A stretch of 40,000 nucleotides of DNA from an uncultured Chloroflexia bacterium (GCA_963826075.1 CAWGVQ010000007.1:318858-358857); one strand, 5' to 3'. Shown: positions 2,161 to 16,430, numbered from the stretch's first letter. Made by a program: numbers and translations. The notes: a model not told the origin generated them from the letters alone.

Positions 2161-2256
2161 GGGGAACGAAAAACCCAGGCGACAAGCAGACTTGTGACCT
2201 GGGCGTGTACTGGAGTGCGGGCTCCTCGGAGGGGATTCGAACCTCTAACCTTGCGG
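2161..2256 (-). repeat. distal att repeat: displaced 3' fragment of tRNA-Asn (2222-2256) plus its native terminator
   Basis: Aligns without gaps to 16335-16430, 88/96 identical. 2216-2256 is a 41-bp perfect match to 16390-16430. The match stops exactly in the anticodon-stem 3' strand of the tRNA. Confidence 0.88.
2169..2203 (-). terminator. rho-independent terminator of the original tRNA-Asn locus
   Basis: On the minus strand the stem is cccaggtcacaag/cttgtcgcctggg (11 Watson-Crick pairs plus a 2-nt internal mismatch, 4-nt loop), followed by TTTTT. Confidence 0.6.
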
Positions 2257-2432
2257 GTAGCTTGCTGTGCAAGCCCTGAATTTAACGGGGTTTGTGGTTA
2301 TTTTGCCCTGATCTGGGAGTGCTACCTGGTAACCAGTTACTTTTCAGTATACGCCCGCAACCTTTCAACAAGCAGGTAGACATTACCAGTGCAAAGCAAC
2401 CTAACGATAATCAGAAAGGAACCGGGTGAACC

Positions 2433-2888
2433 ATGAATTACTTCCAAATTACCGCGAAGGTCGAAGAAGTGAACGAGTCTTCGTACACGGTGCAGTCAAC
2501 GGGTGAGATCGTCACCAAAGTGCAGCTCTCGCTGGTCGTTCCCAGCATGCACGATCGAATATTGTGCGAGCTACCGCTAGACAAGTCTCCAAAAGCGGAT
2601 ATCCTCGACCAGTGGGAATTAGACGAGTCCTGGGTGGTGGTCTCAGCCGAAGGCATGCGGGCGTTGGCCTTTGAGCGCAGCAACGCCCGCGCTGGAGAGA
2701 AACCGGTAGGTGCGCTGGTCGTCTTCCAGGGAGTTGAGGCACGCGAGGCGACCGCCGACGAGCGCAAGGAATTGCAGCAAGCCCGAAAAGCTCAGAAGGT
2801 CCAAGCCAAACAGCGGAGGGCCGCTCGCCAGGCAGAGAAGAAGACCCCGAAAGATGCTGCACCTACAGCTACCCAGCACTCCGCCTAG
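2433..2888 (+). CDS. hypothetical protein with a Lys/Arg-rich C-terminal tail (possible nucleic-acid binding)
   Basis: 151-aa ORF preceded by AAAGGAA 12 nt upstream. The C-terminal tail is KELQQARKAQKVQAKQRRAARQAEKK. I recognise no family. Confidence 0.6.
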   Translation: MNYFQITAKVEEVNESSYTVQSTGEIVTKVQLSLVVPSMHDRILCELPLDKSPKADILDQWELDESWVVVSAEGMRALAFERSNARAGEKPVGALVVFQGVEAREATADERKELQQARKAQKVQAKQRRAARQAEKKTPKDAAPTATQHSA

Positions 2889-3427
2889 ATGTCGCTCTGT
2901 TGTCGGTTGACGTAAAAAAGCGGCCCCGGCTCGAGCAGGCGATGGACAATCAATGGGACAAAGGCAATGATGACCAGTGGGACTAGCTGCGGAAGAGGGC
3001 GCCAGATAACCGCCTCAAGGACACAAAAGAGCGACAGCCATACGTTTGCCCATGTCCTAGTCCACCTGAACAAGCGGGGTCGTAGTGATAGCACGATGAT
3101 ACGCGTCGACGGCAGAGGCCTCCGGGCTTGCAATATGCCAATCAGCGCGGTATCTGCAAAAAGAACTGCCAGCGAGCCAACGGTCACTCGCGAGAGAAAG
3201 AAGGCTAGGTACAAGGGCTGCCTGTCTGAGTAGTTCGGCTCAGCCATGACACACGCAAGTGCACCAATCAGACTCGTGATGGTGATGGCCAAACAGATGA
3301 CTGCAACCCACACGCGGACGCCCATCCAACACCGACCACCAGGACGTATGAGTGTTGGCCCATCAGGTTGCTGGAGCATGACGCTACGCACTCCCTTCGG
3401 TCTCTCACGAGCTAGTTCGTCGGGCAA
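2885..3427 (-). CDS. hypothetical multi-pass membrane protein
   Basis: 180-aa ORF with a TTG start and AGGTGA just upstream. It has about 4 hydrophobic segments. Its stop overlaps the stop of 2433..2888 in the tetranucleotide CTAG (2885-2888). Confidence 0.5.
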   Translation of the reverse strand: MPDELARERPKGVRSVMLQQPDGPTLIRPGGRCWMGVRVWVAVICLAITITSLIGALACVMAEPNYSDRQPLYLAFFLSRVTVGSLAVLFADTALIGILQARRPLPSTRIIVLSLRPRLFRWTRTWANVWLSLFCVLEAVIWRPLPQLVPLVIIAFVPLIVHRLLEPGPLFYVNRQQSDI

Positions 3428-3467
3428 GTTTCACCTGACTATCAGTATACCCGCCAAGGCAACGGCA

Positions 3468-3485
3468 GTGTGAATGGGGTCACAC
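3468..3485. promoter_or_regulatory. perfect palindrome GTGTGA-N6-TCACAC (CRP/FNR-type half sites)
   Basis: The sequence gtgtgaatggggtcacac lies in the 99-bp divergent intergenic region between 2885..3427(-) and 3527..4468(+). Confidence 0.45.
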
Positions 3486-3526
3486 CACTGGCGGCGATAA
3501 TCCCGAGCTGAAAGGAGAGGATACAC

Positions 3527-4468
3527 ATGGCACGAATCACACATACGGCGAGCGTCGGCCCTGCAAGCCAGGCACACATTTCTGTGGTCGATCGGCTCGA
3601 ATATTTCCTGCGGTCGCGAGCATCGAAGGTCGTTGTGCTGGCGCTGGTTGCCAACACGATGGTCGCCCAGCTGCTCTACAACTCTGCCGGCCAGCTGGTG
3701 CTCGGGGATGGCGTCTTGCTGGGCTATCTCATCATCTCGGCATGCTGCTCGACGGTGGCGTTTGCCCTCTTCGAGGTGAGCACCATCTTTCAACTCCACG
3801 ACCTGATGAGCTTGGACAGCTCCATCAAGACCGAGATTGGCGCGGAGACGCTCATCAAACGGGGCTACTTTGTTTTAGGCGTCTCCTCGGTGATCAACTT
3901 CCTCTCGGTGCTCTACTTCTTGGCACTGGCCTGGCACAGCACCACCGGACATTCTGCTGCGTTCCCGCTGGATAACCTGCCCTCGCCCTGGAACTGGCTC
4001 TACTATGCGGTCCATGCCAGCGCCTACACCGCGGTCTTGTTCCTGGCAGGCATCTTCGGAGAGCGGCCCAAGAGTGGCAAAGAGGTGATTCTGGCCACCC
4101 AGCGGGACTTGGAGCAGCAAGCGCTGGAACGCTGGCGAATGCAGAAGGAAGCACAGATTGAGGACATGATGCACCGAGGAATCCCACTCGGTGCCGTGGC
4201 GGCGGCGCTGGCCAGCCCTGAGACCGCCGAGCGGATTGCCGTCTTGGAAGCCGCTACGACGGGCACCATGTCTGCCCTTGATGCCGCTCGGCTCAACGTC
4301 CAGCGGGCTGGGCAGGATTTGACATTGCTTGATGGGCTGCGCGCGGTCGGGGAGGCTCTGCCAGCGCACGATACTCGATCGGCGAATACCGATGAGGAGT
4401 TCGAAGAGCCGGAGAAGGAGGTAGCCGTCAATGGGAAGAGCCCTTTGCCCCTGGCTCGCCGCCGGTAG
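3527..4468 (+). CDS. hypothetical membrane protein: N-terminal ~4 TM segments, C-terminal Ala/Glu-rich helical region
   Basis: 313-aa ORF with a strong RBS (AAAGGAGAGG) 6 nt upstream of the ATG. Hydrophobic segments fall within residues ~35-190. Confidence 0.65.
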   Translation: MARITHTASVGPASQAHISVVDRLEYFLRSRASKVVVLALVANTMVAQLLYNSAGQLVLGDGVLLGYLIISACCSTVAFALFEVSTIFQLHDLMSLDSSIKTEIGAETLIKRGYFVLGVSSVINFLSVLYFLALAWHSTTGHSAAFPLDNLPSPWNWLYYAVHASAYTAVLFLAGIFGERPKSGKEVILATQRDLEQQALERWRMQKEAQIEDMMHRGIPLGAVAAALASPETAERIAVLEAATTGTMSALDAARLNVQRAGQDLTLLDGLRAVGEALPAHDTRSANTDEEFEEPEKEVAVNGKSPLPLARRR

Positions 4469-4494
4469 CTCCAGCAGGACTTCCTCCGGCGGCA

Positions 4495-4644
4495 ATGCAG
4501 CTGGTCGTGGCGTTGACCGATCAGCTGCCACAGGCACAGGGGCGCACCTGGACGGAGGCGGACTATGCCATTCGTGATGCACGCCTGCAGGCACTGGGCC
4601 TCGTCTCAGCCTACAGAACGCAGATGGAACCGGCAAAAACATGA
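4495..4644 (+). CDS. possible small ORF (49 aa), below the ORF-track cutoff
   Basis: My translation is MQLVVALTDQLPQAQGRTWTEADYAIRDARLQALGLVSAYRTQMEPAKT. It fills the gap between 4468 and 4646. The RBS is weak. Confidence 0.25.
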   Translation: MQLVVALTDQLPQAQGRTWTEADYAIRDARLQALGLVSAYRTQMEPAKT

Positions 4645-4645
4645 C

Positions 4646-5074
4646 TCACGGCAGGCTCGGGCCCTGCAGAAACTGGACAGGTGTTCGGATGGGGATGCTG
4701 TCATACCGTCCCATGGAGAGCAAGTCACTATCCCCACTGACGATGACGCTCGCGCCGCCACTCACTGCCAGCTCGAGGACAAAATTGTCTTTGGGGTCGC
4801 GCACCACGTGCAGTTGCACGGTGATCGTAGTCAATGTTCCTACCGTGGTGAGCAGGTTGACGAACTGTACGCGCTGGGACGGGCTGGCATACTGGTCGAA
4901 CTTTGGGTACTGCAGCACGCTATACAGCTCGCGGAGCAACGGCAGCGAGATGAGGAGTTTGCCGTGGTCAAGAGCGAAGTCAACTGCCCGTCGAGATGTC
5001 GAGGTCGGAATGAGGAAGGCGCTGATGAGCACGTTGGTGTCAAAGACGGCGCGCACCTCAGACCTGAGCGTCAT
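4646..5074 (-). CDS. PIN-domain toxin (TIGR00305 / PIN_3-like)
   Basis: 142 aa. It has AVFDTNVLISAF near the N-terminus and RDPKDNFVLELAVSGGASVIVSGDSDLL near the C-terminus, the acidic-residue pattern of this PIN family. Confidence 0.85.
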   Translation of the reverse strand: MTLRSEVRAVFDTNVLISAFLIPTSTSRRAVDFALDHGKLLISLPLLRELYSVLQYPKFDQYASPSQRVQFVNLLTTVGTLTTITVQLHVVRDPKDNFVLELAVSGGASVIVSGDSDLLSMGRYDSIPIRTPVQFLQGPSLP

Positions 5075-5328
5075 CGTGGCTCGTTCGTGGGGTGCGCTTC
5101 CTCGGCCTCCCGCAGAAGTTCCTGCAGCCGCTCTTCGGTCAAGCCGCAGTCTTCAGCCTGCTTGCCGACGGTGTCCATCAGCTCACGCAAGGACTGCCGG
5201 CTCGTTGCGGCCTCCAAGAGGTGCAGACTCACCAGCGCTTCCAGTTTGCGCCGCATCTCAGGAGTTGCCTCCTTGAAGACACGCGCTGCTGCTTCATCCA
5301 ATTCCAATGTGACGGGTTCCGTCGCCAT
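5071..5328 (-). CDS. cognate antitoxin (small acidic helical protein)
   Basis: 85-aa ORF immediately upstream of the PIN gene, with an ATGA start/stop overlap at 5071-5074. Confidence 0.7.
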   Translation of the reverse strand: MATEPVTLELDEAAARVFKEATPEMRRKLEALVSLHLLEAATSRQSLRELMDTVGKQAEDCGLTEERLQELLREAEEAHPTNEPR

Positions 5329-5680
5329 ACGCTTTGCTCTCTCTCACCACTCTACCAATCCACCTCCAGTATGCCACATCGGGATGCTGCGGTGGGCGCC
5401 GAGTCCAGGCCTCCGGTGCGGTGCGGCCAGCCCCGACCGGCTCGAGACCCGGCAAAGCGGCCGCGACGAGGGGCCCGGTCAAGACTGCCGCGCAGCGGCA
5501 CCCCGGAGCGGAGCGGAGGGGTTTAGCCTTGACTGGGAGCGGAGCGGCGCTAGGGTCGAAGAGAGTCGGGCGGGGCTGGGGCCGAGCCACAGAGGCAGCA
5601 CCTCGGCCACGGCAGCGCAGAGGGCGCCGAGGGAGGCAGCAAGGCGGCCCCGTTCCATTCTGGAGAAAGGAGGCAACACC

Positions 5681-5962
5681 ATGGGCAAGAGAACGATGAG
5701 GAGCCTAGTGCGGCAGGGGCGACTCCCTGGCCTGCAAGCTGATCCTACCTACCTGGATCTGGCTGGCGATGCGATGCTCTCGGGGATGACCCGAGACCAA
5801 GTCATTGAGCAGCTGCGCCAGCGCATCGAGCGCGATCTGGACTATCTAGACTATCGCAAGGCAACCGGGAAGCACACGCGCTACGACGAGGAGGTGACCC
5901 AGGACCTGCGCGCCCTGGCGCTCGCCGCCGTCCTGCTGGGAGATGACCACCAGCAGAAGTAA
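5681..5962 (+). CDS. hypothetical small protein upstream of rep
   Basis: This is the 3' part of the long shadow ORF 4565..5962. The ATG at 5681 is preceded by GGAGAAAGGAGG. The 93-aa sequence is non-repetitive and protein-like. Confidence 0.55.
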   Translation: MGKRTMRSLVRQGRLPGLQADPTYLDLAGDAMLSGMTRDQVIEQLRQRIERDLDYLDYRKATGKHTRYDEEVTQDLRALALAAVLLGDDHQQK

Positions 5963-5971
5963 GATCGAGGT

Positions 5972-5992
5972 CCGCCGGCACGATGCCGGCGG
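5972..5992 (+). other. GC-rich stem-loop (9-bp perfect stem ccgccggca / tgccggcgg, 3-nt loop)
   Basis: Read directly from the sequence. It lies 9 nt after the stop of 5681..5962 and 81 nt before the rep start. No T-tract follows it. Confidence 0.5.
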
Positions 5993-6073
5993 GCCGAGGG
6001 GCCGAACTGGGTAACACGGCCCCCAAGAATACATGAGTGAGCTGGACGATGACTGAAAGCGAGAAATAGAGCT

Positions 6074-7648
6074 ATGCCACTTGAGGAACACCTTCGGGCA
6101 CTCACCCAGTTCGTGGACACGTGCCCAACAATACATCGCCCGCGTGAGGCACACGAGGGTTGGGTGGACGACGCCCTCCGGATCCTCATGGCTGGGGTAG
6201 ATACCGTGCATCTGAGCTTTGACGTCGAAGTGAGTGAAGCGATGTTCCAGTACCTCGTAGGGGAGCAGCAGCAGGCGCGGCTGGCTCAGCAGCAGCGCAA
6301 CGCTGCCTACTGCTCCGAATGGCTCAATGCCCGTGTCGCACCTACCGGCGTCAAAGGCTATGCGATCCTCATCGATCGGGAGGAGTGGTCGATCAAGGTG
6401 GCCTACGACAATCCCACCCGTCCACCGATCTTTGTTGAGCTCCGTTCTCTTGCCTTGCACACTCATCCGGAAAAGGTGCTGGGGGCTTGTGAAGATGCCT
6501 GCACCTTCATTCGGGACGTCCTGTTGGCTGACCGCTCGGACGAGTTGCGTACTCAGGTGAAGCTGGGCAACGAAAAGCTCTCGCGACTGGATCTGCACGT
6601 GGATTACCAGGGGGGCTGGCATCCGGATCTCTCGGAGCAGGAACGCCGCCAGTTCATCAAACCGGGACACGCCAAACTGAATGGCCACCTGGAGGGAGAT
6701 CGCTGCACGGGCTACGTTCTGGGCAAACGACGGATTGTCGCCCGGATCTACAACAAGACGATTCAGGCCAAAGAGCACCAACTGGACTGGTACTTCACCT
6801 TGCTCGAGCAGCAAGCTGGAGACCGCTACAACCCCGATCAGGATGTGTGGCGCCTGGAGTTTGAGCTCAAACGGGAGGGAGTGCAAGGGTTTTGTCTCTA
6901 CACCAAACCGGAGGTGAGTGACCCAGAGGATATCATTGACGCGGAGCTCGAGGCCGAAGACTTGCCTACCACCGGAACGATCCAGAAGGCACTCTACTGG
7001 GCACCGCATCTGATCCACTATCTGATGACGCGCTGGTTCCGTCTGGTTGTCCCAAGCGAGGATACCAACCGGGCAAGATGGGCAACCCATCCTACCTGGC
7101 TTGCGCTCAAAGAGGGCTTTGCTGCCGCGATGACGGCCCCAGCGCTCTCCCAGGAACAAAGCCTGCTGGTGCGTGCGCAGCGGCACACAGGCTATAGTCG
7201 GCTCATCAATCGGATGGCGGTGGGCATTGCCAGTGCTGCCGAATTGCTCCTGGACACGGATCCGTGCTCGGTTCTGCCAGCGTTTGTCGCGAACGTGGAG
7301 CAGCTGGCGGCGCAGATTGTCGCCAAACAGGAGGAGAAGCGCAGGCAACTGAAGGGGGAATCTCCCTATGACGCCCGAAGACGGCGCCATTTTCAGGACG
7401 TGCAGCATCTCGCGGCGATGGCACTTGGCGTCTTGACCCAAGCAGGGGTACTCAAGGCGGAGTTGCCGCGAGTGGCTTGTATTGGGGATGTGCTAGCTGT
7501 TCTGGAACCTGATCTCGAGCAAATCGCCAATGCCAAAGGGGGCATCGGGCAGGTGCTCTACGACAAGTGGTGCAAAACCTATAAAGTCGTGCCACCACGC
7601 GGAATGTTCACCATGCATGTGCCTCGGCAGAAGGCCCAGGCGGCCTGA
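6074..7648 (+). CDS. Rep_trans-family rolling-circle replication initiator / MOB_T-like relaxase
   Basis: 524 aa. Ordered motifs are LSRLDLHVDYQGG, TGYVLGKRRIVARIYNKTIQAKE and VWRLEFELKREG. These match the Rep_trans (PF02486) pattern RxDxxxD ... G ... R.YdK ... RxExEl as I remember it. Confidence 0.8.
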   Translation: MPLEEHLRALTQFVDTCPTIHRPREAHEGWVDDALRILMAGVDTVHLSFDVEVSEAMFQYLVGEQQQARLAQQQRNAAYCSEWLNARVAPTGVKGYAILIDREEWSIKVAYDNPTRPPIFVELRSLALHTHPEKVLGACEDACTFIRDVLLADRSDELRTQVKLGNEKLSRLDLHVDYQGGWHPDLSEQERRQFIKPGHAKLNGHLEGDRCTGYVLGKRRIVARIYNKTIQAKEHQLDWYFTLLEQQAGDRYNPDQDVWRLEFELKREGVQGFCLYTKPEVSDPEDIIDAELEAEDLPTTGTIQKALYWAPHLIHYLMTRWFRLVVPSEDTNRARWATHPTWLALKEGFAAAMTAPALSQEQSLLVRAQRHTGYSRLINRMAVGIASAAELLLDTDPCSVLPAFVANVEQLAAQIVAKQEEKRRQLKGESPYDARRRRHFQDVQHLAAMALGVLTQAGVLKAELPRVACIGDVLAVLEPDLEQIANAKGGIGQVLYDKWCKTYKVVPPRGMFTMHVPRQKAQAA

Positions 7649-7789
7649 CAACAGGTTATGCTACAGCCACTGTATAAGGTCGTCTGATTTTGTAAGATCT
7701 GTGTTTATAATGGAAGCTAGGTACTGTGACCCAACAAAGGATGAAATCCGCTAACTTGTGCTGTAAAATTACCCGCTCAACCAACGGGA

Positions 7790-7867
7790 ATGGCATGGTT
7801 TGTGATCGCTGATCTCACAGACGCCAAGCACATCCCGCAGGAATTGGAGCGAAGTGCTCATCATTTC
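7790..7867 (+). pseudogene. short remnant resembling the C-terminal half of a bacterial TIR-domain protein
   Basis: AWFVIADLTDAKHIPQELERSAHHF resembles a motif I recall from cyanobacterial and Chloroflexi TIR proteins (RFVIADLTDxxSIPQEL..IVPH). An in-frame stop lies 16 codons upstream, so no N-terminal TIR half is present. Confidence 0.3.
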
Positions 7868-9150: not shown

Positions 9151-9434
9151 GTGGCCTCCTTGGTGATGTGTCCGCTCGCTAAAATTAGCGGCTATCCTGA
9201 CCGGTGATAAAGCCAGATTGGCCTGGCGACACGGAAGGAGCGGTGTGCGTGGTTGACTGCTATGATCGTCTGCACTTGGTTTCTGGTAGGGTGTAACTCC
9301 TAGTAAGAGATGAGCACATCCCACTGTGATAGTGAATAGCAGGTGCGAATAGTCTACTGGAGAAAGCAGCAGGGCGCAATACCTAGTGATCCGTTTCCAG
9401 CTGGCAACTACGTATGAGAGGGCCTCCCTACCAC

Positions 9435-11081
9435 TTACCCCGGAATAACGCTCCAGGCGCCGTTGATGTAGTGGAGCATAACCGGCACCACACTCGTTCC
9501 AGACTGCATGTCTGCTGCAGCGAACCCCTCGGAGTCAGAGACGAAGGCTACTGCGCCTATTGTCACGATGTGGTCCGGTATCGCTGTCCACGTCCAAACG
9601 CCGTTGCGGTAATGCGCAACCTGATAACTAGAGCTATTGCCATTGAGCCAAGGTGAAGAAAGCCCAGGAACAAAGGGAAAGGAACTGCCGGGGAACGCCC
9701 ATACCTCGTTTGGCGACAGGGCTGCGATCCTGAAAAGATCATGGTTATTCGTCTGCTGATTTACGTAGTTCCCGACGTTTTCACGAGTCAAGTTGGTGCC
9801 ATCGTAGTGCAGCACCAGCGGTGCGGTTCCGTTACCGCTGGCATCCGTGAAAGCGTAGGAACCGGCCACCCACACGTCAGTCGGTGAGGTCATCGAGACG
9901 GCATACATGATGGGGTACTGCACACCAATCTGTGTCCCTGACCACGTCGTCCACATGCCATTCTGGTAGTGGGCCACAGCAAAGTCGCTACTGGTGCCGG
10001 TTCCGGTGCCATAGCCTACGATCCAGCAATCGTCCGGCGTGAGAGCCGCGATGTCTGTGAATATGAGCGCTCCCGACGCATCGAAGGTGAGCGGCACCGA
10101 TATCCAGGAACCATTCTGAAAGTGCAGTAGTGTATACGCATACTTTGCCGTATACGGATTGATGTGCGACTTTCCGCCATCGATCAGCATCCACCCGTCA
10201 CCCGACGAAGTCATATGGACTGTTATACCGGTAACTATGCCAGTGGTGTTGGCAGTGGCTGGGAGAGACACTTGCAGCCATTGGCCGTCCGTGTAGTGTA
10301 ACGCCAGTGGCTTGGCATTAGATGTAGTTCCTACCGCCCAGCCATCAGTTGCGGATACCATGGACACGCTGAGCAACTCGGCGTTGGGAATACCCACATC
10401 AACTGGCTGCCACTGGCAATTCTGGAAGTGCAACAGCAGTGTAGCAGTAGGCACGACAGCGCCTTGTTGGGTGATAGTCTGTATCCAGCCAACCGCCCAG
10501 CCATCACGCGGCGAGCTCATACTGATGTCTTGGATGAGCGCATTGGGAGGGATGGTTGCGCCCAAAGCGCTAGAAGGACAGGCAGAAGGCGTTGGTGTGC
10601 TACTGGTGGCCACTGCCGGGGTATGGCCGTGGCGAAGCTGTACGCCGAAGTATCCAAAGAGCGCAGCACTCAGGGCGACGAGTAAGACGGCGGCCAGCAC
10701 AGCGAGCGCTGGGCGATGGGATGGGCGTTGTGGTGGCCGTGCTACACTAGTAGCCTGCTGGGAGGCAAGAGCACGAGAATCCGTGTCATATTCTACAACA
10801 CCGGCCTTTGTCCTCTGAGACACCGTCAGTGGGGATCGCGAAGGAAGCTGGTCGCGAAGGGCGAGCCAGGCATCAGCAGCGTGGGAATCGGGTGGAATGC
10901 GGTTGTCCTCGTCAGCCAGCGTAGTGGCGATGGTGCCCCATGCCGCTGCCGCGCGACGGCAGGCCGCGCAACCAGCAAGATGACGCTCTACAGCCGACCC
11001 CTCAGCCAGCGAGAGGCAGCCAGCAACATGCCAGGGGAGGCGCTCGCGGCAGGCGGAACATGTCAGGTCGTCAGGCATCAT
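9435..11081 (-). CDS. anti-sigma factor: zf-HC2 (ZAS) domain, one TM segment, seven-repeat extracytoplasmic propeller-like domain
   Basis: The N-terminus contains HLAGCAACRR (HxxxCxxC). The TM segment is ALAVLAAVLLVALSAALFGYFGV. Seven repeats each carry a (D/E)xW(A/I)(V/F)G-type motif and an (L/A)H(Y/F)xNGxW motif. Confidence 0.85.
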   Translation of the reverse strand: MMPDDLTCSACRERLPWHVAGCLSLAEGSAVERHLAGCAACRRAAAAWGTIATTLADEDNRIPPDSHAADAWLALRDQLPSRSPLTVSQRTKAGVVEYDTDSRALASQQATSVARPPQRPSHRPALAVLAAVLLVALSAALFGYFGVQLRHGHTPAVATSSTPTPSACPSSALGATIPPNALIQDISMSSPRDGWAVGWIQTITQQGAVVPTATLLLHFQNCQWQPVDVGIPNAELLSVSMVSATDGWAVGTTSNAKPLALHYTDGQWLQVSLPATANTTGIVTGITVHMTSSGDGWMLIDGGKSHINPYTAKYAYTLLHFQNGSWISVPLTFDASGALIFTDIAALTPDDCWIVGYGTGTGTSSDFAVAHYQNGMWTTWSGTQIGVQYPIMYAVSMTSPTDVWVAGSYAFTDASGNGTAPLVLHYDGTNLTRENVGNYVNQQTNNHDLFRIAALSPNEVWAFPGSSFPFVPGLSSPWLNGNSSSYQVAHYRNGVWTWTAIPDHIVTIGAVAFVSDSEGFAAADMQSGTSVVPVMLHYINGAWSVIPG

Positions 11082-11652
11082 GACGTAACTCCTTCACCGG
11101 AGTAGCGTACAGCTCACGCCACAATGCCTTGCGGGCGTAGTTGATCCGGCTTTTGACGGTGCCAGCGGGCACGTCGAGAATCTGGGCGGCTTCGTCGAGT
11201 GAGAAGCCGTGCTGGAAGACGAGCGCCAGAACTTCACGGTGTTTAGGCGAGAGGTGGTTTAGAGCCTCGTCCAGGGCCATGCGATCGAGCACAATGTCGT
11301 CGCAGGCCGCGTATGTCGCACCAGGCTGGACCAGGGTATCATCCTCGTTGTCGGAAGAGTCGGGCGGTTGGCTGCCGAGATGGCGGAGGCGACGGCGCCT
11401 GGTGCCAAGCGCCACGTAACGGGCGATCTGGTAGAGCCAGGTGGACACTCGGGCCTCAGCGCGATAGCCGCTCGCGGTACGCCAGACGGCCAGGAAGACG
11501 TCTTGCAGGGCCTCCTCGACACCAGTAGAGTCGCCGTCGAGCTGGTGCCAGAGGTAGCGGCGCAGGCGCGGGCGATAGGCGAGGTAGAGCTGGTGCAGCG
11601 CCTCCTCGTTGCCGGTTGCAACCTGGGCTAGTAGCTGTTGGTCATCCAGCAC
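11071..11652 (-). CDS. ECF (group 4) sigma-70 factor
   Basis: Region 2 reads YRPRLRRYLWHQL...DVFLAVW. Region 4 reads LSPKHREVLALVFQHGFSLDEAAQILDVPAGTVKSRINYARKAL. The start is uncertain: GTG at 11652 (193 aa) is preferred over the TTG at 11766 given by the ORF track. It overlaps the anti-sigma gene start by 11 nt. Confidence 0.85.
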   Translation of the reverse strand: MLDDQQLLAQVATGNEEALHQLYLAYRPRLRRYLWHQLDGDSTGVEEALQDVFLAVWRTASGYRAEARVSTWLYQIARYVALGTRRRRLRHLGSQPPDSSDNEDDTLVQPGATYAACDDIVLDRMALDEALNHLSPKHREVLALVFQHGFSLDEAAQILDVPAGTVKSRINYARKALWRELYATPVKELRHDA

Positions 11653-12018
11653 AGGCGTTCCCCATCGGCAAGTACTCCCGTCCTCACGATACAGTCCGGC
11701 GCTGCATCTGTCGCTGTCACAAGTGTTGACGAAGAATAGGTGTGTCGATAGGCCCGAATGGTTCAAAGTGCTTCGCTAGTAGGACTGAAAAGGGTCTGAT
11801 ACGGTTTACGCGTGAGGTCTTGGAGAATGGAACCATGGCAAGCGTGACGCAATTGAAGCCGCTCAATGAATCGCTGAAGGGTGATACTGGGCTTGATCTC
11901 TCAACGATCCGTCCCTCGCGGTCAACGAAGTGATGGTTTAGGAGACGAGGAGAAGGCGAGGCCGCGTTTGACGTGCTTGCATGTGCCAGAGCACTCCATC
12001 AGCTTGGGGCGACGTCAG

Positions 12019-12627
12019 TCATTCCGTAGCAATGCACTGCCCTATGCGCTCAAGGAGCTCATCGGCGGATAGGGAGATGCTCCCCAGTCCAATGTTCATT
12101 TTGACCCGTTGCTTGCCTCCGTAGGTGGAAACTCTGTTGGGCTTGAGGATAAAGGAAATGGTGAGCGACGTGATTCGATACAGGCCACCTACCCCCAACA
12201 TTCGCGTCGTGGTGTACGCAGCGATATGGTCCACATCCCTCCAATAGATGGTGCGGAACATACCTGGAAACGGATGATACACCAAACTCGACGGAGTCAC
12301 GTGCAAAACTGGCTGGGATGTGAACGTCCAATACAAGCCAAGCGGCACGGGGGTGCCACAGAGGAGTACCACGCAGACGAAGACTATGGTTGCAGCTGGT
12401 TGCTGATACTGCCACGGATGCCAGCTGACGGTTGGGGGTGTCCAGACAAAATACACCAGGAACGCAACGACCACGACACCGGCAAAGATCATGGCTGGCA
12501 GAAATGGCTTCCAGCGCGTCGCATACACGCGGACATCATGTGGTGTTTGTACCACCATGGGAGGCCTCGATTCCTCTACAGAGATGTGCAGTACCTGCAG
12601 CTGTACACCTTCCTCCTGGTAGGACAT
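12019..12627 (-). CDS. hypothetical membrane protein (2 TM segments plus a C-terminal globular domain)
   Basis: I place the start at the ATG at 12627 (MSYQEEGVQLQ...). The ORF-track extension to 12750 runs through the IS transposase 3' end in another frame. Confidence 0.55.
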   Translation of the reverse strand: MSYQEEGVQLQVLHISVEESRPPMVVQTPHDVRVYATRWKPFLPAMIFAGVVVVAFLVYFVWTPPTVSWHPWQYQQPAATIVFVCVVLLCGTPVPLGLYWTFTSQPVLHVTPSSLVYHPFPGMFRTIYWRDVDHIAAYTTTRMLGVGGLYRITSLTISFILKPNRVSTYGGKQRVKMNIGLGSISLSADELLERIGQCIATE

Positions 12628-13252
12628 CACGACGAGCCGGCGTGCTCGTGGTGACGCGGAGGCCCTTGGCGTTTCTTCAGCCGCTGCGGCCACCAGGGAA
12701 ACAGCGTCGCTGAGCGGATCAGTGCTGGATGGCGCTGCAGCACCACACACCGCGCGAGCTGCGCCTCTTCGAGTTCATTGATATCGGCAAAACACTGATT
12801 GACCAGGACCTCGTTGCTGAACTGCCACAGGTGCTCGGCCGGCTGCAACTCCGATGAGTAGCCCGGCAGGAACAACAGATGCACATGCTCGGGGACCCGC
12901 AGGTGCAGACTGGTGTGCCAGCCGGCACGGTCGAGGATCAGCACGATTTCTTTCTTCGGGCCTGCTGCCACCGTCCGGGCAAAGGCTGCCAGTTCCGCCT
13001 CAAAAAGCGGAATCGAAACGCTGGTGGCCAGGTGCCAGACGGTCCGACCCGAGGCGGGATGGACAAAGGCCACCAGATAGCGCCACACAAAGCGGTGGCG
13101 CACCGGCGCCAGCGGGCGCTGACCAATCGGTGCCCAGACCCGACGCAGCAGCGGTTTCAAGCCTATGCGATGCTCGTCCATGGCCCAGACCTCGACCTTG
13201 GCCTGCGGAAAGGCTGTGGCCACCTGCCTTAGCAAGGGACGGACGTTTTTTT
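12627..13252 (-). CDS. IS630-family transposase, catalytic DDE part (orfB, reached by a -1 shift at the A7 run 13246-13252)
   Basis: Signatures are VWAMDEHRIGLKP, VLILDRAGWH and GYSSELQPAEHLW. The frame is -1 relative to orfA. The junction would read ...TAFKK|NVRPLLRQV. Confidence 0.78.
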
Positions 13253-13744
13253 GAAGGCGGTCTGCTCCTCGGGATCGGCTAGGGCATGCTGCGGTCGCGG
13301 CACTTGTTGGCTGTGCTTGAGGCGCTGCAAGTAGTCCCACCCACGCTGGACCCGCACCGGTCGGCCTAGCTTCGCGGAAATCCAAGCGGCCACCGCCCGG
13401 GCGGTCCACTGCTTGCTGTAGTCGGGTGCGGGTCCAGCAATCGCTTGACGCAGTTCCTCTTGGAGCTCTACCGAGAGCATTGGGGCCGGGCGCCAGGAAG
13501 TCGTGTGTTGCCGGTTGCGCATGCCAGCTGGACCTTGCTCGTTATAGCGCCGCGCGATCTGCCCAATCCAATAGCGGGAGTAGCTGGTGCTATCGGCAAT
13601 CTGCTTGGCGGTTTGGCTGCGGGAAAGCAGCCACAGAATCTGCCACCAGCTCCGTTCATGCGGCTCTTTGGCGGACCGGTAGCGCTCTTCGAGTTGTTCG
13701 GTCGTCAAATGCGGTTGAAGATTGATGTGTCTTGGCATGCCCAC
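13229..13744 (-). CDS. IS630-family transposase, N-terminal DNA-binding part (orfA)
   Basis: 171 aa. WWQILWLLSRSQTAKQIADSTSYSRYWIGQIARRYNEQG is typical of the IS630 HTH region. It ends just after an A7 run. Confidence 0.8.
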   Translation of the reverse strand: MGMPRHINLQPHLTTEQLEERYRSAKEPHERSWWQILWLLSRSQTAKQIADSTSYSRYWIGQIARRYNEQGPAGMRNRQHTTSWRPAPMLSVELQEELRQAIAGPAPDYSKQWTARAVAAWISAKLGRPVRVQRGWDYLQRLKHSQQVPRPQHALADPEEQTAFKKTSVPC

Positions 13745-13949
13745 ATTCTACAATATCCCGAACGGAAACCGTATGAGGAGGCACAGACAATGCGCTCTAA
13801 GGCAGACCGATACCCAACAGTTGCACCTACCTCGTTGATGCTGTACAATCTGCTCACGCGAGAAGTGCCCATTTTAACAGGCTTTGCCGCATGCGAGCAG
13901 CGAAATGTGGGTACCTGCCTTCCAAGCAGATCTTCTTAATGAACTGGCG

Positions 13950-14489
13950 CTACCAGATGGAAGGTTCAATGAAATCTGCCGCTGGTCGCCGGAGCGCTTG
14001 GGTGATCCGCATGGCCAGCCGCATGCCGGTCGCAAACTTGATAGTACGGAGGTCCATGAGCTGGGAGGGCGTGCAGTGCAACCTTTCCGCGACCTGCCGC
14101 CAGGTCTCGTCTCGCTCGGTGCGGGCGCAATTGAGCGCAGCGTAGAGTTTCGCTAGGTTCCATCGCAGCCGGTGCACCACATCAGTCACAGGGAGGGGGA
14201 CGCCGGTTGTGCCAGACCGTGGCTGGACCACAAACATCTCAGGGGGGCAACCCAGCCATCTTAGCAGAAACAAGGCGTGCTGGCAGGAGCCTCCGCCCTC
14301 TCCTATGTGCCTGATCGTCGAAGGACTGATCGGATGATCTCCAAGCTTGTCATTGAGTACCTGTGACTGATTCCACACATCATGAGCGAGTATGTCCCAG
14401 CTTAGGGCTTCTTGACGGCGTCGCTCGTCAGTGGCAGTGAAGAACGCCTGGGCATCGAAGCCGCCAGGATGGGTCACGCCTCCCGCCAT
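13950..14489 (-). CDS. hypothetical DNA-binding protein with two tandem HTH-like modules (candidate element regulator)
   Basis: 179 aa. There are two internally similar segments. One runs ...RRRQEALSWDILAHDV...ISPSTIRHI...ALFLLRWLGCPPEMFV. The other runs ...RTERDETWRQVAERLHCTPSQLMDL...AMRITQALRRPAADFI. Confidence 0.55.
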   Translation of the reverse strand: MAGGVTHPGGFDAQAFFTATDERRRQEALSWDILAHDVWNQSQVLNDKLGDHPISPSTIRHIGEGGGSCQHALFLLRWLGCPPEMFVVQPRSGTTGVPLPVTDVVHRLRWNLAKLYAALNCARTERDETWRQVAERLHCTPSQLMDLRTIKFATGMRLAMRITQALRRPAADFIEPSIW

Positions 14490-14614
14490 AACCTGCCTCC
14501 TGTGTTGGGTATTGCCACCTTCACGTTGTGCATTTCAAGAACAGCATTGGTTTTGGGAGTGCACTGACCGGCCATATATCGCTTATACCATTACATATTT
14601 CACAGCCCAACGGC

Positions 14615-14785
14615 TTAAGCAGGCATGAGCGCCTGCACAACCAGCTCAACATCCTCTTTGCTGATGAGCTTCTTACGGCTGTCGCTAGGATCTCCAATGA
14701 ACTTGATCTTTCCCACAATTTGAAGTTGTGTCATTCTCTTCTCGACAATAAATCGCCCGACCCCCAAACGTTGCGATCTTTGCAG
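14615..14785 (-). pseudogene. truncated or interrupted paralog of the excisionase-like gene 14811..15017
   Basis: My translation is (TAA at 14786-14788) LQRSQRLGVGRFIVEKRMTQLQIVGKIKFIGDPSDSRKKLISKEDVELVVQALMPA*. It aligns along its length to the neighbour's QRAGVGRFVAERKMNEMEESGQIRFVDDPRDIRKKLISREHVDAIVTALTPG. It is absent from the ORF track. Confidence 0.6.
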
Positions 14786-14810
14786 TTAGGCTCCGATCCC
14801 AATCAAGAAT

Positions 14811-15017
14811 TCAGCCCGGGGTAAGGGCCGTCACAATTGCGTCAACATGCTCTCTGCTTATCAGCTTCTTGCGAATATCACGTGGATCGTCTACAAAGCG
14901 GATCTGTCCTGACTCTTCCATCTCATTCATTTTGCGTTCGGCAACAAATCTGCCCACTCCGGCTCTTTGCATGACTTCCATGATTGCCTGGGTTTTACCA
15001 ATGTACTGTGTTGCCAT
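14811..15017 (-). CDS. small DNA-binding protein, excisionase / recombination-directionality-factor candidate
   Basis: 68 aa from the ATG at 15017, with GGAGG 9 nt upstream. It is divergent from the integrase. The size and the pattern (helix, then GQIRF, then basic RKKLIS) resemble Xis/MerR-type winged helices. Confidence 0.55.
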   Translation of the reverse strand: MATQYIGKTQAIMEVMQRAGVGRFVAERKMNEMEESGQIRFVDDPRDIRKKLISREHVDAIVTALTPG

Positions 15018-15050
15018 TTGCGTTAACCTCCAAAGCGTGCCCTTTGTCGC

Positions 15051-15056
15051 ATTATA
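15051..15056 (-). promoter_or_regulatory. consensus -10 hexamer (TATAAT on the minus strand) for the xis-like gene
   Basis: attata on the plus strand lies 34 nt upstream of the ATG at 15017. The -35 region is weak. Confidence 0.35.
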
Positions 15057-15148
15057 CAGCATGCATTTCCTTTATGCTCATGTCTACTCAGTTTCTACTG
15101 GGTTTACTAATGTTAGCGCAGTTTAGCGCAGATTTCCTCTTTAAGTAC

Positions 15149-15176
15149 TTGACATGGGAATATCAGCGTGTATAAT
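15149..15176 (+). promoter_or_regulatory. integrase promoter TTGACA-N16-TATAAT
   Basis: Both hexamers match the sigma-70 consensus exactly (15149-15154 and 15171-15176). GGAGG at 15184-15188 and the ATG at 15195 follow. Confidence 0.6.
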
Positions 15177-15194
15177 ACAAATTGGAGGGTAGCT

Positions 15195-16217
15195 ATGAAG
15201 ATGGCAGCCGCAATCCGGGGTTTTTTGATGGACTGGGAGCTGCGTGAGCATTCGCCAAACACGATTCGACTCTATCGGTCGTGTTTGAACGTATTTGCTC
15301 GCTGGCTCGAAGAACAGGGCATTACGACGGTGGAGGACGTCACGATTGCCCATCTACGCGCATTTATGCTCTATACCCAACAACGCCCAGTCGATGCAGT
15401 GAACCCGAGCCATCCCACCGCAACAGATGGGCGGACGCTCAGCACAGCAACCTTGCAATCCTACGTGAAGACCATCAAAGTACTGTTTCATTGGCTCGTA
15501 GACGAGGAGGTGATTACGCGCAATCCAGCGCTCCGCTTACATAAGCCCGTCGAGGCAAGGCGGGTGGTGGTGACATTCTCGCATCAGCACCTCAACGCCA
15601 TGTTTGAGGCCTGCGATCTCACCAACTCCCTGGGCTTTCGTGACTACGTCTTGATGCTCGTCCTACTCGATACCGGCCTTCGGGTGAGCGAACTCTGCGG
15701 CATCCAGCTGGATGATGTCCATGAGGCCTACATCAAGGTCTTGGGCAAGGGGCGTAAAGAGCGCGAGGTTGGCGTCAGTCCAACCACCGCCAAGTTCATC
15801 TGGAAATACATCCACCTGCACCGCGTGACAGCGGATGACGCGGTAACGGCCCTGTTCACAAACTTTGCGGGCCACGGACTGCGACCCTCCGGGGTCGAAA
15901 AGCTCATCAGGCGGGTGAAAGATGCCGCTGGCATTACCGACATTCCGGTGACGGCGCACAAGTTCCGTCATACTTTCGCCCGCACGTGGCTGGAACGGGG
16001 CGGTGAGGTCTACAGCCTCTCGAGGCTCATGGGCCACTCGAGTGTGAAGGTCACCGAAATCTATCTGGAAGACTTCAAGAGTCGGCAGGCCCGTCTACAG
16101 CACGCGAAGTTCTCGCCAATCAGCCAACTGAAGCTCCGCCAGAAGGGGCGCGGCCGCCATACCTACAAGCGCCAGCCGCAATTTGGGGATAATGATGAGA
16201 AGCAGGAGAACGGCTAA
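15195..16217 (+). CDS. tyrosine recombinase / phage-type integrase
   Basis: The N-terminal SAM-like domain reads NTIRLYRSCLNVFARWL. The catalytic signature is GLRVSEL ... HKFRHTFA ... LMGHSSVKVTEIY (R, HxxR, H, Y). I use the ATG at 15195 because the ORF-track GTG at 15168 immediately abuts and runs through the -10 hexamer. Confidence 0.92.
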   Translation: MKMAAAIRGFLMDWELREHSPNTIRLYRSCLNVFARWLEEQGITTVEDVTIAHLRAFMLYTQQRPVDAVNPSHPTATDGRTLSTATLQSYVKTIKVLFHWLVDEEVITRNPALRLHKPVEARRVVVTFSHQHLNAMFEACDLTNSLGFRDYVLMLVLLDTGLRVSELCGIQLDDVHEAYIKVLGKGRKEREVGVSPTTAKFIWKYIHLHRVTADDAVTALFTNFAGHGLRPSGVEKLIRRVKDAAGITDIPVTAHKFRHTFARTWLERGGEVYSLSRLMGHSSVKVTEIYLEDFKSRQARLQHAKFSPISQLKLRQKGRGRHTYKRQPQFGDNDEKQENG

Positions 16218-16334
16218 GCGGCGTTGGGGTCTGTTACCAAAAGGTAATTGCCCAATTCCGCCCACGAAGGGCCTCCAGTGGGCTGTAACCTTACCTATTT
16301 TAGACGGTTTTGAGAGGGGGTGAGGGCAGTCGCC

Positions 16335-16430
16335 GGGGAATGAAAAACCCAGGCGACAAACGGGTTTGTGACCTGGGTGTCTACTGGACTGCGGGCTCCT
16401 CGGAGGGGATTCGAACCTCTAACCTTGCGG
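16335..16430 (-). repeat. proximal att repeat: element-derived terminator copy plus the 3' 35 nt of the functional tRNA-Asn
   Basis: Partner of 2161-2256. The 41-bp perfect core is 16390-16430. Confidence 0.88.
16343..16377 (-). terminator. rho-independent terminator downstream of tRNA-Asn
   Basis: On the minus strand there is a hairpin cccaggtcacaaa/tttgtcgcctggg followed by TTTTT. Confidence 0.6.

Follow-up and report, generated by a model that had tools for sequence, protein, structure and literature searches.

The described systems that appear closest in architecture are the integrative mobilizable elements (IMEs) of streptococci and the AICEs of actinobacteria. In streptococci, IME_Class_1 combines a tyrosine integrase with a Rel_PF02486/MobT protein, with or without TcpA (Coluzzi et al. 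2017, PMC5357655), and the coupling protein is missing in 21 of 45 streptococcal IME cases (PMC5357655). NicK of ICEBs1 is the relaxase in conjugation and also initiates rolling-circle replication once the element has been excised (PMC5357655). The AICEs measure 10.9–17.3 kb, and their RepSA is a member of the pC194 family (te Poele et al. 2008, PMC2440964).

Here we analysed a window of 40,000 nucleotides (the whole stretch of DNA under study) from a soil Ktedonobacteria genome, which contains an element of 14.2 kb. In our best explanation, which we consider reasonably probable, window positions 2216/2257–16390/16430 represent a 14,174-bp element integrated site-specifically into a Ktedonobacteria (Chloroflexota) chromosome, replicating by its protein Rep524 and likely mobilizable. 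The element lies between two copies of a direct repeat (2161–2256 and 16335–16430; identity 88/96, ungapped), which includes a perfect 41-bp core (2216–2256 = 16390–16430) at a spacing of 14,174 bp. This 41-bp identity bounding the element is the 3′ end of tRNA-Asn: based on the tRNA boundaries given by ARAGORN and Rfam and on the core coordinates, the core spans the 3′ 35–38 nt of the tRNA. The two ends carry the following features.

1156–2103: prs, host gene flanking the left repeat
2161–2256, no strand: attL, displaced host tRNA-Asn 3′ end (core 2216–2256) and host terminator hairpin (2173–2204)
16335–16430, no strand: attR, element-borne terminator copy (hairpin 16347–16378) and the 41-bp core (16390–16430) completing the tRNA
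16393–16468, minus strand: intact tRNA-Asn(GTT), the integration target (ARAGORN)

Rfam placed the tRNA-Asn at 16396–16467 (62.4 bits), and a promoter-like site for the tRNA-Asn region was found at 16564–16536. attL begins 57 nt past the prs stop codon. Downstream of the tRNA 3′ end, each copy has a 13-bp terminator hairpin and a U-run (dG −20.1 and −19.0 kcal/mol; z −4.0 and −4.5), the two terminator copies differing by one compensatory change, G-C to A-U. A 40-mer of the core was detected in exactly two copies in the 40-kb window, compared with 0 expected from shuffles, indicating that the core is not a dispersed repeat in the window; this possibility had been raised in a preliminary description of the same DNA. 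That description had also claimed the 96-bp repeat with its 41-bp core, the identity of the right copy as the 3′ end of an intact tRNA-Asn(GTT), a terminator in each copy, the position of prs next to the left copy and the release of a 14,174-bp circle by recombination in the core. All of these agree with our measurements, the size of the predicted circle being the repeat spacing.

The right end of the element carries the recombination genes.

14615–14785, minus strand: truncated tandem paralog of the 83-aa gene, same candidate role by position alone
14811–15062, minus strand: 83-aa gene, oriented divergently to int; its position alone makes it a candidate excisionase or regulator
15149–15176, plus strand: sigma-70 consensus promoter, TTGACA-16-TATAAT (12/12 match)
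15168–16217, plus strand: tyrosine integrase ORF, Pfam Phage_integrase (7e-30) and SAM-like N-terminal domain

The GTG at 15168 lies within the promoter, so that int probably starts at the ATG at 15195 or 15201. The gene ends 118 bp from attR, and by inspection the integrase has a putative catalytic set of R172, K197, H264, R267, H290 and Y299. The tyrosine integrase and consensus promoter claimed about 120 bp inside the right repeat were thus found in place. Two other proposals were not upheld. As regards the claimed ‘xis-like genes’, no Pfam, PHROG or NCBIfam model recognized an excisionase in the element, leaving the 83-aa gene and its truncated paralog as candidates by position. The inverted GGTAAC/GTTAC motifs proposed as recombinase binding sites were at chance level, with 10 copies of GGTAAC in the window versus 9.3 expected and only one 7-mer common to both inner ends, where shuffles expect 2.3.

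The left half of the element contains the genes that it has in common with other Ktedonobacterales elements.

2433–2888, plus strand: core gene g151 (151 aa), N-terminal part rich in beta structure, tail basic
2885–3427, minus strand: possible membrane-protein ORF (164–180 aa), its sole support a gene call in a sister contig
3527–4468, plus strand: core gene gTM313 (313 aa), membrane protein with four predicted TM segments and a helical C-terminal part
5394–5650, no strand: GC-rich block conserved at the DNA level in L085, L091, L092 and L095
5681–5962, plus strand: core gene g93 (93 aa), immediately preceding rep, with conserved copies in L086, L087 and L095
5969–5995, plus strand: hairpin hp1, sequence variable, pairing kept
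5998–6023, plus strand: hairpin hp2, stem GGGGCCG/CGGCCCC with the conserved 12-nt loop AACTGGGTAACA
6074–7648, plus strand: Rep524 (524 aa), Rep_trans fold at residues ~35–370 and a helical C-terminal extension of ~150 aa

The four genes g151, gTM313, g93 and Rep form the core of a Ktedonobacterales family of elements to which this one belongs; the hosts are filamentous bacteria. A second bounded member, L086, lies at tRNA-Gln(CTG) between 43-bp perfect repeats 13,207 bp apart, with an integrase adjoining the tRNA and with g151, gTM313, g93 and Rep in the same order. L085, L087, L091, L092, L095 and the P0043 contig have the core in common, while their integrases or cargo differ, and the copies in L091 and L092 are degenerate. 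Family members thus swap integrase, target tRNA and cargo. The family is apparently undescribed so far. g151 is kept across it with 34–83% identity, and showed no match in Pfam, PHROG, NCBIfam or PADLOC, its PHROG hit, like that of gTM313, being non-significant. gTM313 is the most conserved protein of the family, far above Rep or Int, with several copies per genome; more than 390 clusters were found, the best 120 matches listed among them showing 70–89% identity and the L086 copy 64%. Among the copies compared, gTM313 is 64–89% identical where Rep is at 36–51%, and it is always linked to Rep. The model of gTM313 was of moderate confidence and gave no structural match, and the GC-rich block at 5394–5650 gave no match in Rfam.

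The preliminary description had named a Rep_trans protein. This held for the fold but not for Pfam, in which Rep524 has no match even at E 5 and the gathering threshold of Rep_trans (PF02486) is not reached. The AlphaFold model of Rep524 has pLDDT >85 across most of residues 35–370, and its best PDB match in Foldseek was 4CIJ chains A–C (E 4e-10 to 1e-9, probability 1.0; TM 0.57–0.60 on target), at an identity of only 14–16%. Rep_trans was the top Pfam family among 35 Rep relatives, although it was matched by only 2/35, with a best E of 0.0026, below threshold. D173, D177, Y226 (in ARIYNK) and E262 are invariant across the 35 relatives, and Y226 may be the nucleophile. BLASTP matched Rep524 to a Bacillus gene annotated ‘replication initiation factor’ (1e-17), the two having the motifs LSRxD, ARIYNKT and VWRxEF in common. 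A Bacillus plasmid relative of Rep524 has the same arrangement of Rep, HTH_17 and integrase as several Ktedonobacteria members. The fold of the pT181/pC221 initiators, as in 4CIJ (RepSTK1 of Geobacillus), corresponds to residues ~35–370 of Rep524; unlike these initiators, Rep524 is ~200 aa longer and is encoded on an integrated element, not on a free plasmid. The predicted fold, rather than Pfam, supports Rep524 as a rolling-circle initiator with a Rep_trans fold, and one might conjecture a relaxase activity as well. The hairpins hp1 and hp2 just upstream of rep are conserved, with compensatory stem changes, in five members, suggesting a candidate double-strand origin or oriT at 5969–6023.

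The remaining genes are transcribed from the minus strand.

4646–5074, minus strand: PIN_3-domain toxin (Pfam PIN_3, 1.4e-15), cargo or stabilization
5071–5328, minus strand: 85-aa ORF upstream of the PIN gene with a 4-nt overlap, presumed antitoxin from its position
7861–9324, minus strand: 429–487-aa ORF, N-terminal stretch hydrophobic by eye, a possible secreted or membrane-anchored protein
9435–11081, minus strand: anti-sigma factor (zf-HC2, profile match) with a large C-terminal domain
11071–11766, minus strand: ECF sigma factor, start uncertain (193-aa form called in a sister contig)
12019–12750, minus strand: ORF, some stretches hydrophobic by eye, a possible membrane protein; the match to the STM3941 family is weak and below cutoff
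12627–13744, minus strand: IS630-type transposase in two overlapping frames, an HTH_33 part and a DDE_3 part
13950–14489, minus strand: 179-aa ORF, possible regulator, only an HTH_23 match far below threshold (E 0.056)

The toxin–antitoxin pair and the signalling cargo announced earlier were both recovered, the former as the PIN_3 gene with its 4-nt-overlapping partner and the latter as the ECF sigma and zf-HC2 anti-sigma factors. The ORF at 7861–9324 had no family match; we class it as cargo, together with the ORF at 12019–12750 and the IS630-type gene. The IS630-type transposase (12627–13744) was absent from the preliminary description; terminal inverted repeats were looked for and none was found.

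A close relative lacking the element was available in L093, whose ENA sample also yielded a copy of the element at 99.6% identity. L093 is 99.6% identical to the window at 18502–24001 and shows the order prs, 1.78 kb, tRNA-Asn and acyltransferase. Its tRNA-Asn is identical over the aligned 5′ part, the 40-nt core is present once, and none of the element proteins has a match in L093. The claim of site-specific integration at the 3′ end of tRNA-Asn with regeneration of the tRNA is supported by these flanks, adjacent without the element, and by the 43-bp repeat of L086 at tRNA-Gln. The element-free relative that the preliminary description had called for was thus found as far as neighbouring flanks and the lack of element proteins are concerned, but not as a base-perfect empty attB, L093 having a 1.78-kb DUF1611 segment versus 57 nt and the terminator in the window. 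Furthermore, the tract from about window position 260 to 18500 is only 82–92% identical to L093, between flanks of at least 99%. Because of this divergent tract, the element may have entered here by homologous replacement of a larger segment and not by site-specific integration. The circular junction and the core were sought in two scans of JGI metagenome contigs, and nothing was found; short-read contigs break inside the core.

The divergent tract, covering the element and both flanks, also bears on the strongest of the alternatives, namely that the locus is a fixed remnant island that arose by a single integration or by homologous arrival of a larger block, has lost excision and replication, and carries its genes as decaying cargo. 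The IS630-type transposase inside the element, the presence of the same element at the same place in the only other sampled genome of the species, and the clearly degenerate state of other family copies are in line with such a remnant. However, the two copies of the 41-bp core show no mismatch, none of int, rep, g151, gTM313 and g93 is shortened relative to its homologs, and the putative catalytic residues of the integrase and the 12/12 promoter are intact. We regard a remnant as unlikely.

For transfer, we found no credible Walker A/P-loop in any ORF of the element. Pfam scans of the large ORFs and the Walker A search detected no ATPase of the VirB4, VirD4, TcpA or FtsK type, nor was an FtsK/SpoIIIE domain found by Pfam in the element, consistent with the claimed absence of a transfer ATPase. 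No structural or packaging match to PHROG was detected in the element, the matches being to integrase, Rep (two weak matches, one to a family annotated as replication initiation and the other ‘unknown function’) and PIN (one, also ‘unknown function’), with two non-significant. A tailed prophage was rejected, there being no capsid, portal, terminase or tail genes by PHROG and 14 kb being too small. An ICE with type IV secretion was rejected by the lack of a VirB4/TraU ATPase and of a coupling protein in Pfam and the Walker A search. An AICE proper was likewise rejected: the element has a tRNA target, a tyrosine integrase and a size within the ~9–24 kb of the criterion, but the FtsK/SpoIIIE Tra is absent and the Rep is not RepSA, RepAM or Prim-Pol. 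The claimed misfit with prophage, ICE and AICE was correct, but the gene content is less anomalous than this implied, because the architecture resembles described IMEs (tyrosine integrase, Rep_trans/MobT, no coupling protein; PMC5357655).

Judged by architecture, the element appears closest to the streptococcal IMEs with a tyrosine integrase and Rep_trans/MobT, and to AICEs without the FtsK-like Tra. Like IME_Class_1, it is a small chromosomal element with att repeats, a tyrosine integrase and no mating-pore genes, in which a Rep_trans-superfamily protein is the sole DNA-processing enzyme. Unlike IME_Class_1, its host phylum is Chloroflexota instead of Bacillota, Rep524 is below the PF02486 threshold and has its C-terminal extension, and the core genes g151, gTM313 and g93 have no counterpart there. 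A Rep_trans-superfamily enzyme on an integrated element is also the point of likeness to ICEBs1 NicK and MobT of the Tn916-superfamily ICEs, which in contrast encode a full type IV secretion system and TcpA, the element encoding neither. With the AICEs pSAM2, SLP1 and pMEA300, the element shares the 11–17 kb size range, a tRNA 3′-end target, a tyrosine integrase and small hydrophobic proteins, as well as a filamentous, sporulating host. Rolling-circle replication after excision, shown for pSAM2, is proposed here from the Rep. However, the host is not an actinobacterium, the Rep is of the pT181/Rep_trans structural family and not of the pC194 type of RepSA, and we detected in the element neither an FtsK/SpoIIIE-type Tra nor regulators of the Kor or Pif kind (GntR or Nudix).

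These likenesses raise the alternative of a self-transmissible, AICE-like element, moving between hyphae by an unrecognized function of its own. The most plausible transfer protein would be gTM313, possibly with g151 and g93, in place of the FtsK-like TraB and Spd. The 14.2-kb size, tRNA target, integrase, rolling-circle Rep and hydrophobic proteins mirror the AICE layout (PMC2440964), gTM313 combines a conservation far above that of Rep or Int with constant linkage to Rep, and the host class is described in the literature as filamentous and resembling actinomycetes, Ktedonobacteria being spore-forming. Against this, the element has neither an FtsK/SpoIIIE domain nor a credible Walker A motif anywhere, and the moderate-confidence model of gTM313 has no structural match. 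To our knowledge, ATPase-free DNA transfer has no precedent, which also counts against self-transmission. We consider it rather improbable, more so than a remnant.

Less probable again, and in our view only a slight chance, is an integrated filamentous inovirus-like prophage or satellite, in which Rep would make single-stranded DNA, g151 coat it and the small membrane proteins act in the coat or in assembly. Among viral proteins, the structures closest to Rep524 are Inoviridae Rep proteins (E 5e-12 and 5e-9), Rep_trans-type initiators occur in inoviruses, and the compact size, tRNA integration and several membrane proteins would fit; however, there is no pI/Zot-type morphogenesis ATPase, no P-loop and no such PHROG match, the PHROG matches being limited to those given above, and tblastn of Rep524 against 50,697 phage records gave no match, IMG/VR containing just two weak relatives (26–29% identity). 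Finally, the idea that the repeat is no att pair, but arose by chance, is dispersed or stems from duplication of a tRNA fragment independent of the intervening genes, found no support and is effectively refuted by the two copies in 40 kb versus 0 expected, one of them a functional tRNA 3′ end adjoined by the integrase, by the absence of the interval from L093 and by the same arrangement at a different tRNA in L086.

For a replicating, probably mobilizable integrative element, we propose the following course. The integrase would recombine attL with attR in the core, perhaps with the product of the 83-aa divergent gene as directionality factor; excision would release the circle and leave tRNA-Asn with its own terminator. 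Rep524 would then nick the conserved hairpin at 5998–6023 upstream of its gene, whereupon the circle would replicate in rolling-circle mode. Stabilization of the element may fall to the PIN toxin pair, and the ECF sigma/anti-sigma pair with the adjacent 487-aa ORF would be cargo. We know of no helper conjugative system in Ktedonobacteria. The alternative route would be only vertical spread and recombination of the element flanks; most likely, however, the element would behave as an IME in its spread, with Rep also serving as a MobT-like relaxase and a helper providing the transfer apparatus.

The two copies of the repeat bounding the element (attL, 2161–2256; attR, 16335–16430) were identical at 88 of 96 positions without gaps and shared a perfect core of 41 bp (2216–2256 and 16390–16430) at a spacing of 14,174 bp; re-examination of the sequence bore out the values of the preliminary description. 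The 40-nt core was present in exactly two copies in the 40-kb window, compared with none in shuffled sequences. A minus-strand tRNA-Asn(GTT) was placed at 16393–16468 by ARAGORN and at 16396–16467 by Rfam (62.4 bits; the only match of the Rfam scan), and based on these placements the core, which begins within the 3′ strand of the anticodon stem, corresponds to the 3′ 35–38 nt of the tRNA. Over the approximately 55 nt past the tRNA end, the left and right copies were identical at 47 of 55 positions. Each copy contained a hairpin of 13 bp with a U-run after it (−20.1 and −19.0 kcal/mol, z about −4 to −4.5), and the top of the terminator stem showed a compensatory G-C to A-U difference between them. 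Because the repeat includes the hairpin and U-run in both copies, the element brings its own working tRNA 3′ end and terminator. The earlier reading of the right copy as the 3′ end of an intact tRNA-Asn(GTT) plus its terminator thus agreed with ARAGORN, Rfam and hairpin folding. The displaced host copy of the tRNA 3′ end lies 57 nt downstream of prs (1156–2103). This is a textbook case of site-specific integration, and we regard the assignment as solid, with high confidence. Scans of JGI metagenome contigs gave no match to either the predicted attB/attR junction or the 40-nt core. Two Logan short-read contigs of the same organism (L002 and L084) each broke off within the 41-bp core, the expected assembly break at a repeat, so that such assemblies are uninformative on the attB and attP forms.

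The genes and ORFs between the repeats were as follows:

2433–2888, plus strand: g151, a core protein of no family
2885–3427, minus strand: possible membrane ORF
3527–4468, plus strand: gTM313, predicted four-helix membrane protein of no family
4646–5074, minus strand: PIN_3 toxin (1.4e-15)
5071–5328, minus strand: 85-aa toxin partner (4-nt overlap with the toxin gene)
5681–5962, plus strand: g93, a core protein
6074–7648, plus strand: Rep524, the Rep of the element
7861–9324, minus strand: 487-aa ORF, no family match
9435–11081, minus strand: zf-HC2 anti-sigma factor
11071–11766, minus strand: ECF sigma factor
12019–12750, minus strand: 243-aa ORF, no significant family match
12627–13744, minus strand: IS630-type transposase in two frames
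13950–14489, minus strand: 179-aa ORF
14615–14785, minus strand: truncated paralog of the 83-aa gene
14811–15062, minus strand: 83-aa gene
15168–16217, plus strand: tyrosine integrase ORF (Int)

The integrase is intact. It matched Phage_integrase (7e-30) and the PHROG integrase family (7e-44), and R172, K197, H264, R267, H290 and Y299, taken by eye as the catalytic set, were all present. A TTGACA-16-TATAAT promoter matching the consensus at 12 of 12 positions (15149–15176) overlaps the GTG start, making the ATG at 15195 or 15201 the probable start of translation. An exact look-up of the protein from the GTG start gave no match, and its annotated start probably differs from this codon. No excisionase model matched any ORF of the element; the xis-like genes proposed earlier are therefore reduced to the 83-aa gene, an excisionase candidate by position alone. 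This gene is divergent from int and has a truncated tandem paralog, clearly alike over the C-terminal 56 residues (GQIRFVDDPRDIRKKLISREHVDAIV compared with GKIKFIGDPSDSRKKLISKEDVELVV), and neither was recognized by any profile. The GGTAAC/GTTAC motifs, previously suggested to be recombinase sites, occurred at chance level (10 GGTAAC found, 9.3 expected), and arm sites of this kind were rejected, the inner ends having one 7-mer in common compared with 2.3 in shuffles. The IS630-type gene showed no terminal inverted repeats, and NCBIfam and PADLOC scans of the unassigned proteins of the element returned nothing usable. None of the ORFs contained a credible Walker A motif; the element thus encodes no P-loop protein, and the absence of a transfer ATPase had been correctly noted.

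The host belongs to the Ktedonobacteria; among genomes, prs matched a Ktedonobacterales MAG best (89% amino-acid identity), and all named relatives of Rep and gTM313 were Ktedonobacterales or Ktedonobacteraceae. A prs-based contig scan gave 80 loci; none of the 21 from Chloroflexota/Ktedonobacteria that were scanned for tRNAs had tRNA-Asn within 10 kb of prs, and the 12 Ktedonobacteria prs loci compared showed no synteny with the window; this search was fruitless because the species-level representatives were too distant. Exact-protein look-ups of prs and the flanking acyltransferase returned only the same element (L001/L083, a metagenome copy) and short Logan contigs. An 83%-identical homolog of the acyltransferase led to contig_8721 (L093) of ENA sample ERZ25039491, which also holds the L001/L083 copy (99.6% identical). 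In that copy, int, rep, gTM313 and prs are each split in two by frameshifts; its contigs are probably an error-prone long-read assembly, and the splits should therefore not be taken as pseudogenes.

L093 was 99.6% identical to window positions 18502–24001 and carries, in order, prs, a 1.78-kb segment (82-aa ORF, DUF1611 gene and 92-aa ORF), tRNA-Asn and the acyltransferase. The aligned 5′ part of its tRNA-Asn was identical, the 40-nt core occurred once, and the element proteins had no match on the contig. The element is absent from this close relative, in which its flanks are close neighbours, indicating that the 14 kb is accessory and removing the objection that an empty site is never seen. 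L093 is no base-perfect attB, since the DUF1611 segment stands there instead of the terminator hairpin. Identity between the window and L093 was 99% over positions 1–110 and 82–92% throughout approximately 260–18500, including prs, tRNA-Asn and the acyltransferase. The mosaic resembles the outcome of a homologous replacement, at a variable hotspot, of some 18 kb. A more distant lineage may have supplied this block through homologous recombination, in which case integration may have occurred in the donor genome. Both sides also showed indels, with DUF2199 and the element in the window, and the DUF1611 segment plus 4.6 kb comprising TetR, transposase-fragment and RRXRR genes in L093.

Rep524 had no match in Pfam, NCBIfam or PADLOC and only weak matches in PHROG (replication initiation protein, 3.6e-4; a family of unknown function, 3.9e-5). 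In an alignment of 35 relatives, SRLDLHxDWQGGW, ARIYNK and VWRLEFQLxR were invariant. The AlphaFold model made with this alignment was confident over about residues 35–370, and its top match in the PDB, and the only significant one, was 4CIJ, the Geobacillus rolling-circle initiator RepSTK1 (E 4e-10, probability 1.0, TM 0.60 on target). The Rep profile found nothing significant among PDB sequences, and the link to Rep_trans comes from fold comparison only. Rep_trans was also the top Pfam family among the relatives, matched by only two of the 35 (E 0.0026). The Rep_trans call made earlier thus holds for the fold, while Rep524 itself stays below the Pfam threshold. We conclude that Rep524 belongs to the Rep_trans structural superfamily, within a lineage that Pfam does not cover. 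Against 1.84 billion representatives, the Rep profile gave 2,834 matches at E ≤ 1e-3, of which 1,212 reached E ≤ 1e-10, and the 10 distant full-length members sampled had no Pfam domain, which points to a large Rep_trans-fold lineage missed by current family databases. Y226, within ARIYNK, is the putative nucleophile. Rep524 also matched a Bacillus plasmid gene annotated as 'replication initiation factor' (tblastn 4e-9, BLASTP 1e-17), in which the same motifs recur. The nearest annotated relative lies within 298456–305049 of the 503-kb Bacillus cereus plasmid NZ_CP085507.1 (L088), in a cassette of Rep, HTH_17 and site-specific integrase genes beside a reverse-transcriptase gene; this three-gene order matches that of Ktedonobacteria locus L087 and the P0043 contig.

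Two hairpins common to five family members lie immediately 5′ of rep. The first (5969–5995) varies in sequence and keeps its pairing. In the second (5998–6023), the 12-nt loop, AACTGGGTAACA, is conserved and the stem is GGGGCCG/CGGCCCC, carrying a single compensatory change in the related element L086; this hairpin resembles the nick site of a rolling-circle origin or oriT, for which it is only a candidate. A GC-rich block (about 70%) upstream of g93, at 5394–5650, was conserved at the DNA level in four other family members and contains GGAGCGGAGCGG twice. It matched nothing in Rfam and contains no convincing ORF, and it could represent iterons, a single-strand origin or an RNA.

Relatives of Rep524 formed 48 clusters (36–100% identical). 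L086 keeps the core order (g151, 34%; gTM313, 64%; g93, 43%; Rep, 51% identity to the window) and has a tyrosine integrase adjoining tRNA-Gln(CTG), with a 43-bp perfect repeat 13,207 bp apart. Its cargo is a diversity-generating retroelement (RT, bAvd, TIR/FGE target and 132-nt repeat pair) at 11639–15337, with a TIR/TPR/FGE-sulfatase target gene and repeats at 13418–13549 and 15206–15337 that are 88% identical. L085 (Rep, 80%; g151, 82%) has an unrelated integrase, an HTH_17 gene and IS110. In L087 and the P0043 contig, Rep is followed by HTH_17, integrase and housekeeping genes. L091 and L092 hold g151, gTM313 and Rep in degenerate copies, several per genome, with no integrase or att found. 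L095 and L096 (Rep, 91%) carry a TIR-TPR gene, a 1,237-aa repeat protein and an Mrr/ParA-like gene; no integrase or att was found in either, and a search for att sites at L085 and L095 was likewise negative. The repeat protein of L095 (12045–15758) consists of at least 14 tandem 102-nt (34-aa) repeats; the next gene encodes Mrr_cat and ParA-like domains, and this cargo may be defence-related. Based on this comparison, members of the family keep one core (g151, gTM313, g93, Rep and the hairpins) and differ in cargo and in integration modules, which are exchangeable. A literature search found no description of this element family, and the Ktedonobacteria literature examined described no integrative element of this class.

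The membrane protein gTM313 was far more conserved than the accompanying Rep and integrase. Its relatives formed more than 390 clusters, with several copies per genome, and identity was 64% in L086 and 70–89% for the best 120 of the more than 390, in copies with Rep 36–51% identical. It had no match in Pfam, PHROG, NCBIfam or PADLOC, and its structure model, of moderate confidence, had no fold match. This strong constraint on a mobile-element membrane protein is unexplained and is the one feature that could hide new biology.

In the mechanism that we propose, Int would recombine attL and attR inside the core, giving a 14,174-bp circle and a tRNA-Asn that keeps its own terminator. Rep would nick the conserved hairpin and carry out rolling-circle replication of the excised form. 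The element would be stabilized by the PIN pair, and the sigma/anti-sigma pair with the adjoining 487-aa ORF would be cargo; for spread between cells, mobilization is the most economical reading. Taken as a whole, we consider this rolling-circle and mobilizable mechanism moderately probable. In Tn916-superfamily ICEs, Rep_trans/MobT enzymes serve as relaxases, and in ICEBs1 one enzyme serves both transfer and replication (PMC5357655). Among streptococci, 45 IMEs pair a tyrosine integrase with a MobT protein, 21 of them without a coupling protein (PMC5357655). The element appears to work like an integrative mobilizable/replicative element of the Rep_trans/MobT class, Rep524 having the fold of this class and scoring below its Pfam threshold.

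The element is neither a prophage, nor a T4SS ICE, nor an AICE. The filamentous host and a layout like that of AICEs (PMC2440964) make a self-transmissible, AICE-like element, with gTM313 standing in for TraB, an attractive reading; however, the element has no ATPase, gTM313 has no structural match, and neither the defining Tra protein nor a RepSA-type Rep was found. It is improbable that the family is a Ktedonobacteria counterpart of AICEs, self-transmissible between hyphae without a P-loop translocase, in which gTM313, g151 and g93 would form a new kind of apparatus for transfer or spread, coupled with a nickase of the Rep_trans type. A fixed remnant island would account for the IS insertion and the block divergent from L093, but the core is still perfect and the genes are full length. 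An inovirus-like prophage shares the Rep fold, the top matches of Rep524 in a viral structure library being Inoviridae Rep proteins, but the element has no pI/Zot ATPase, no PHROG matches to structural, packaging or morphogenesis families, no match in phage records and almost no IMG/VR relatives. The element is new in four respects, chief among them the highly conserved, multi-copy gTM313; the others are its host phylum, a Rep lineage that Pfam does not see and that bears a C-terminal extension, and a conserved companion module of three genes.

Ktedonobacteria are large-genome, actinomycete-like soil bacteria of natural-product interest. A recurrent family, present in multiple copies, is defined by this element: its core is recognizable, its integrases and tRNA targets are swappable, and its cargo varies. 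Among the cargo seen so far are the PIN toxin pair and ECF sigma system of the window, the diversity-generating retroelement of L086, and the TIR-TPR and Mrr-like genes of L095. The tRNA-Asn integrase with its defined 41-bp core and the candidate rolling-circle replicon could supply parts for genetic tools, and horizontal gene flow within the Ktedonobacteria can be approached through the family.
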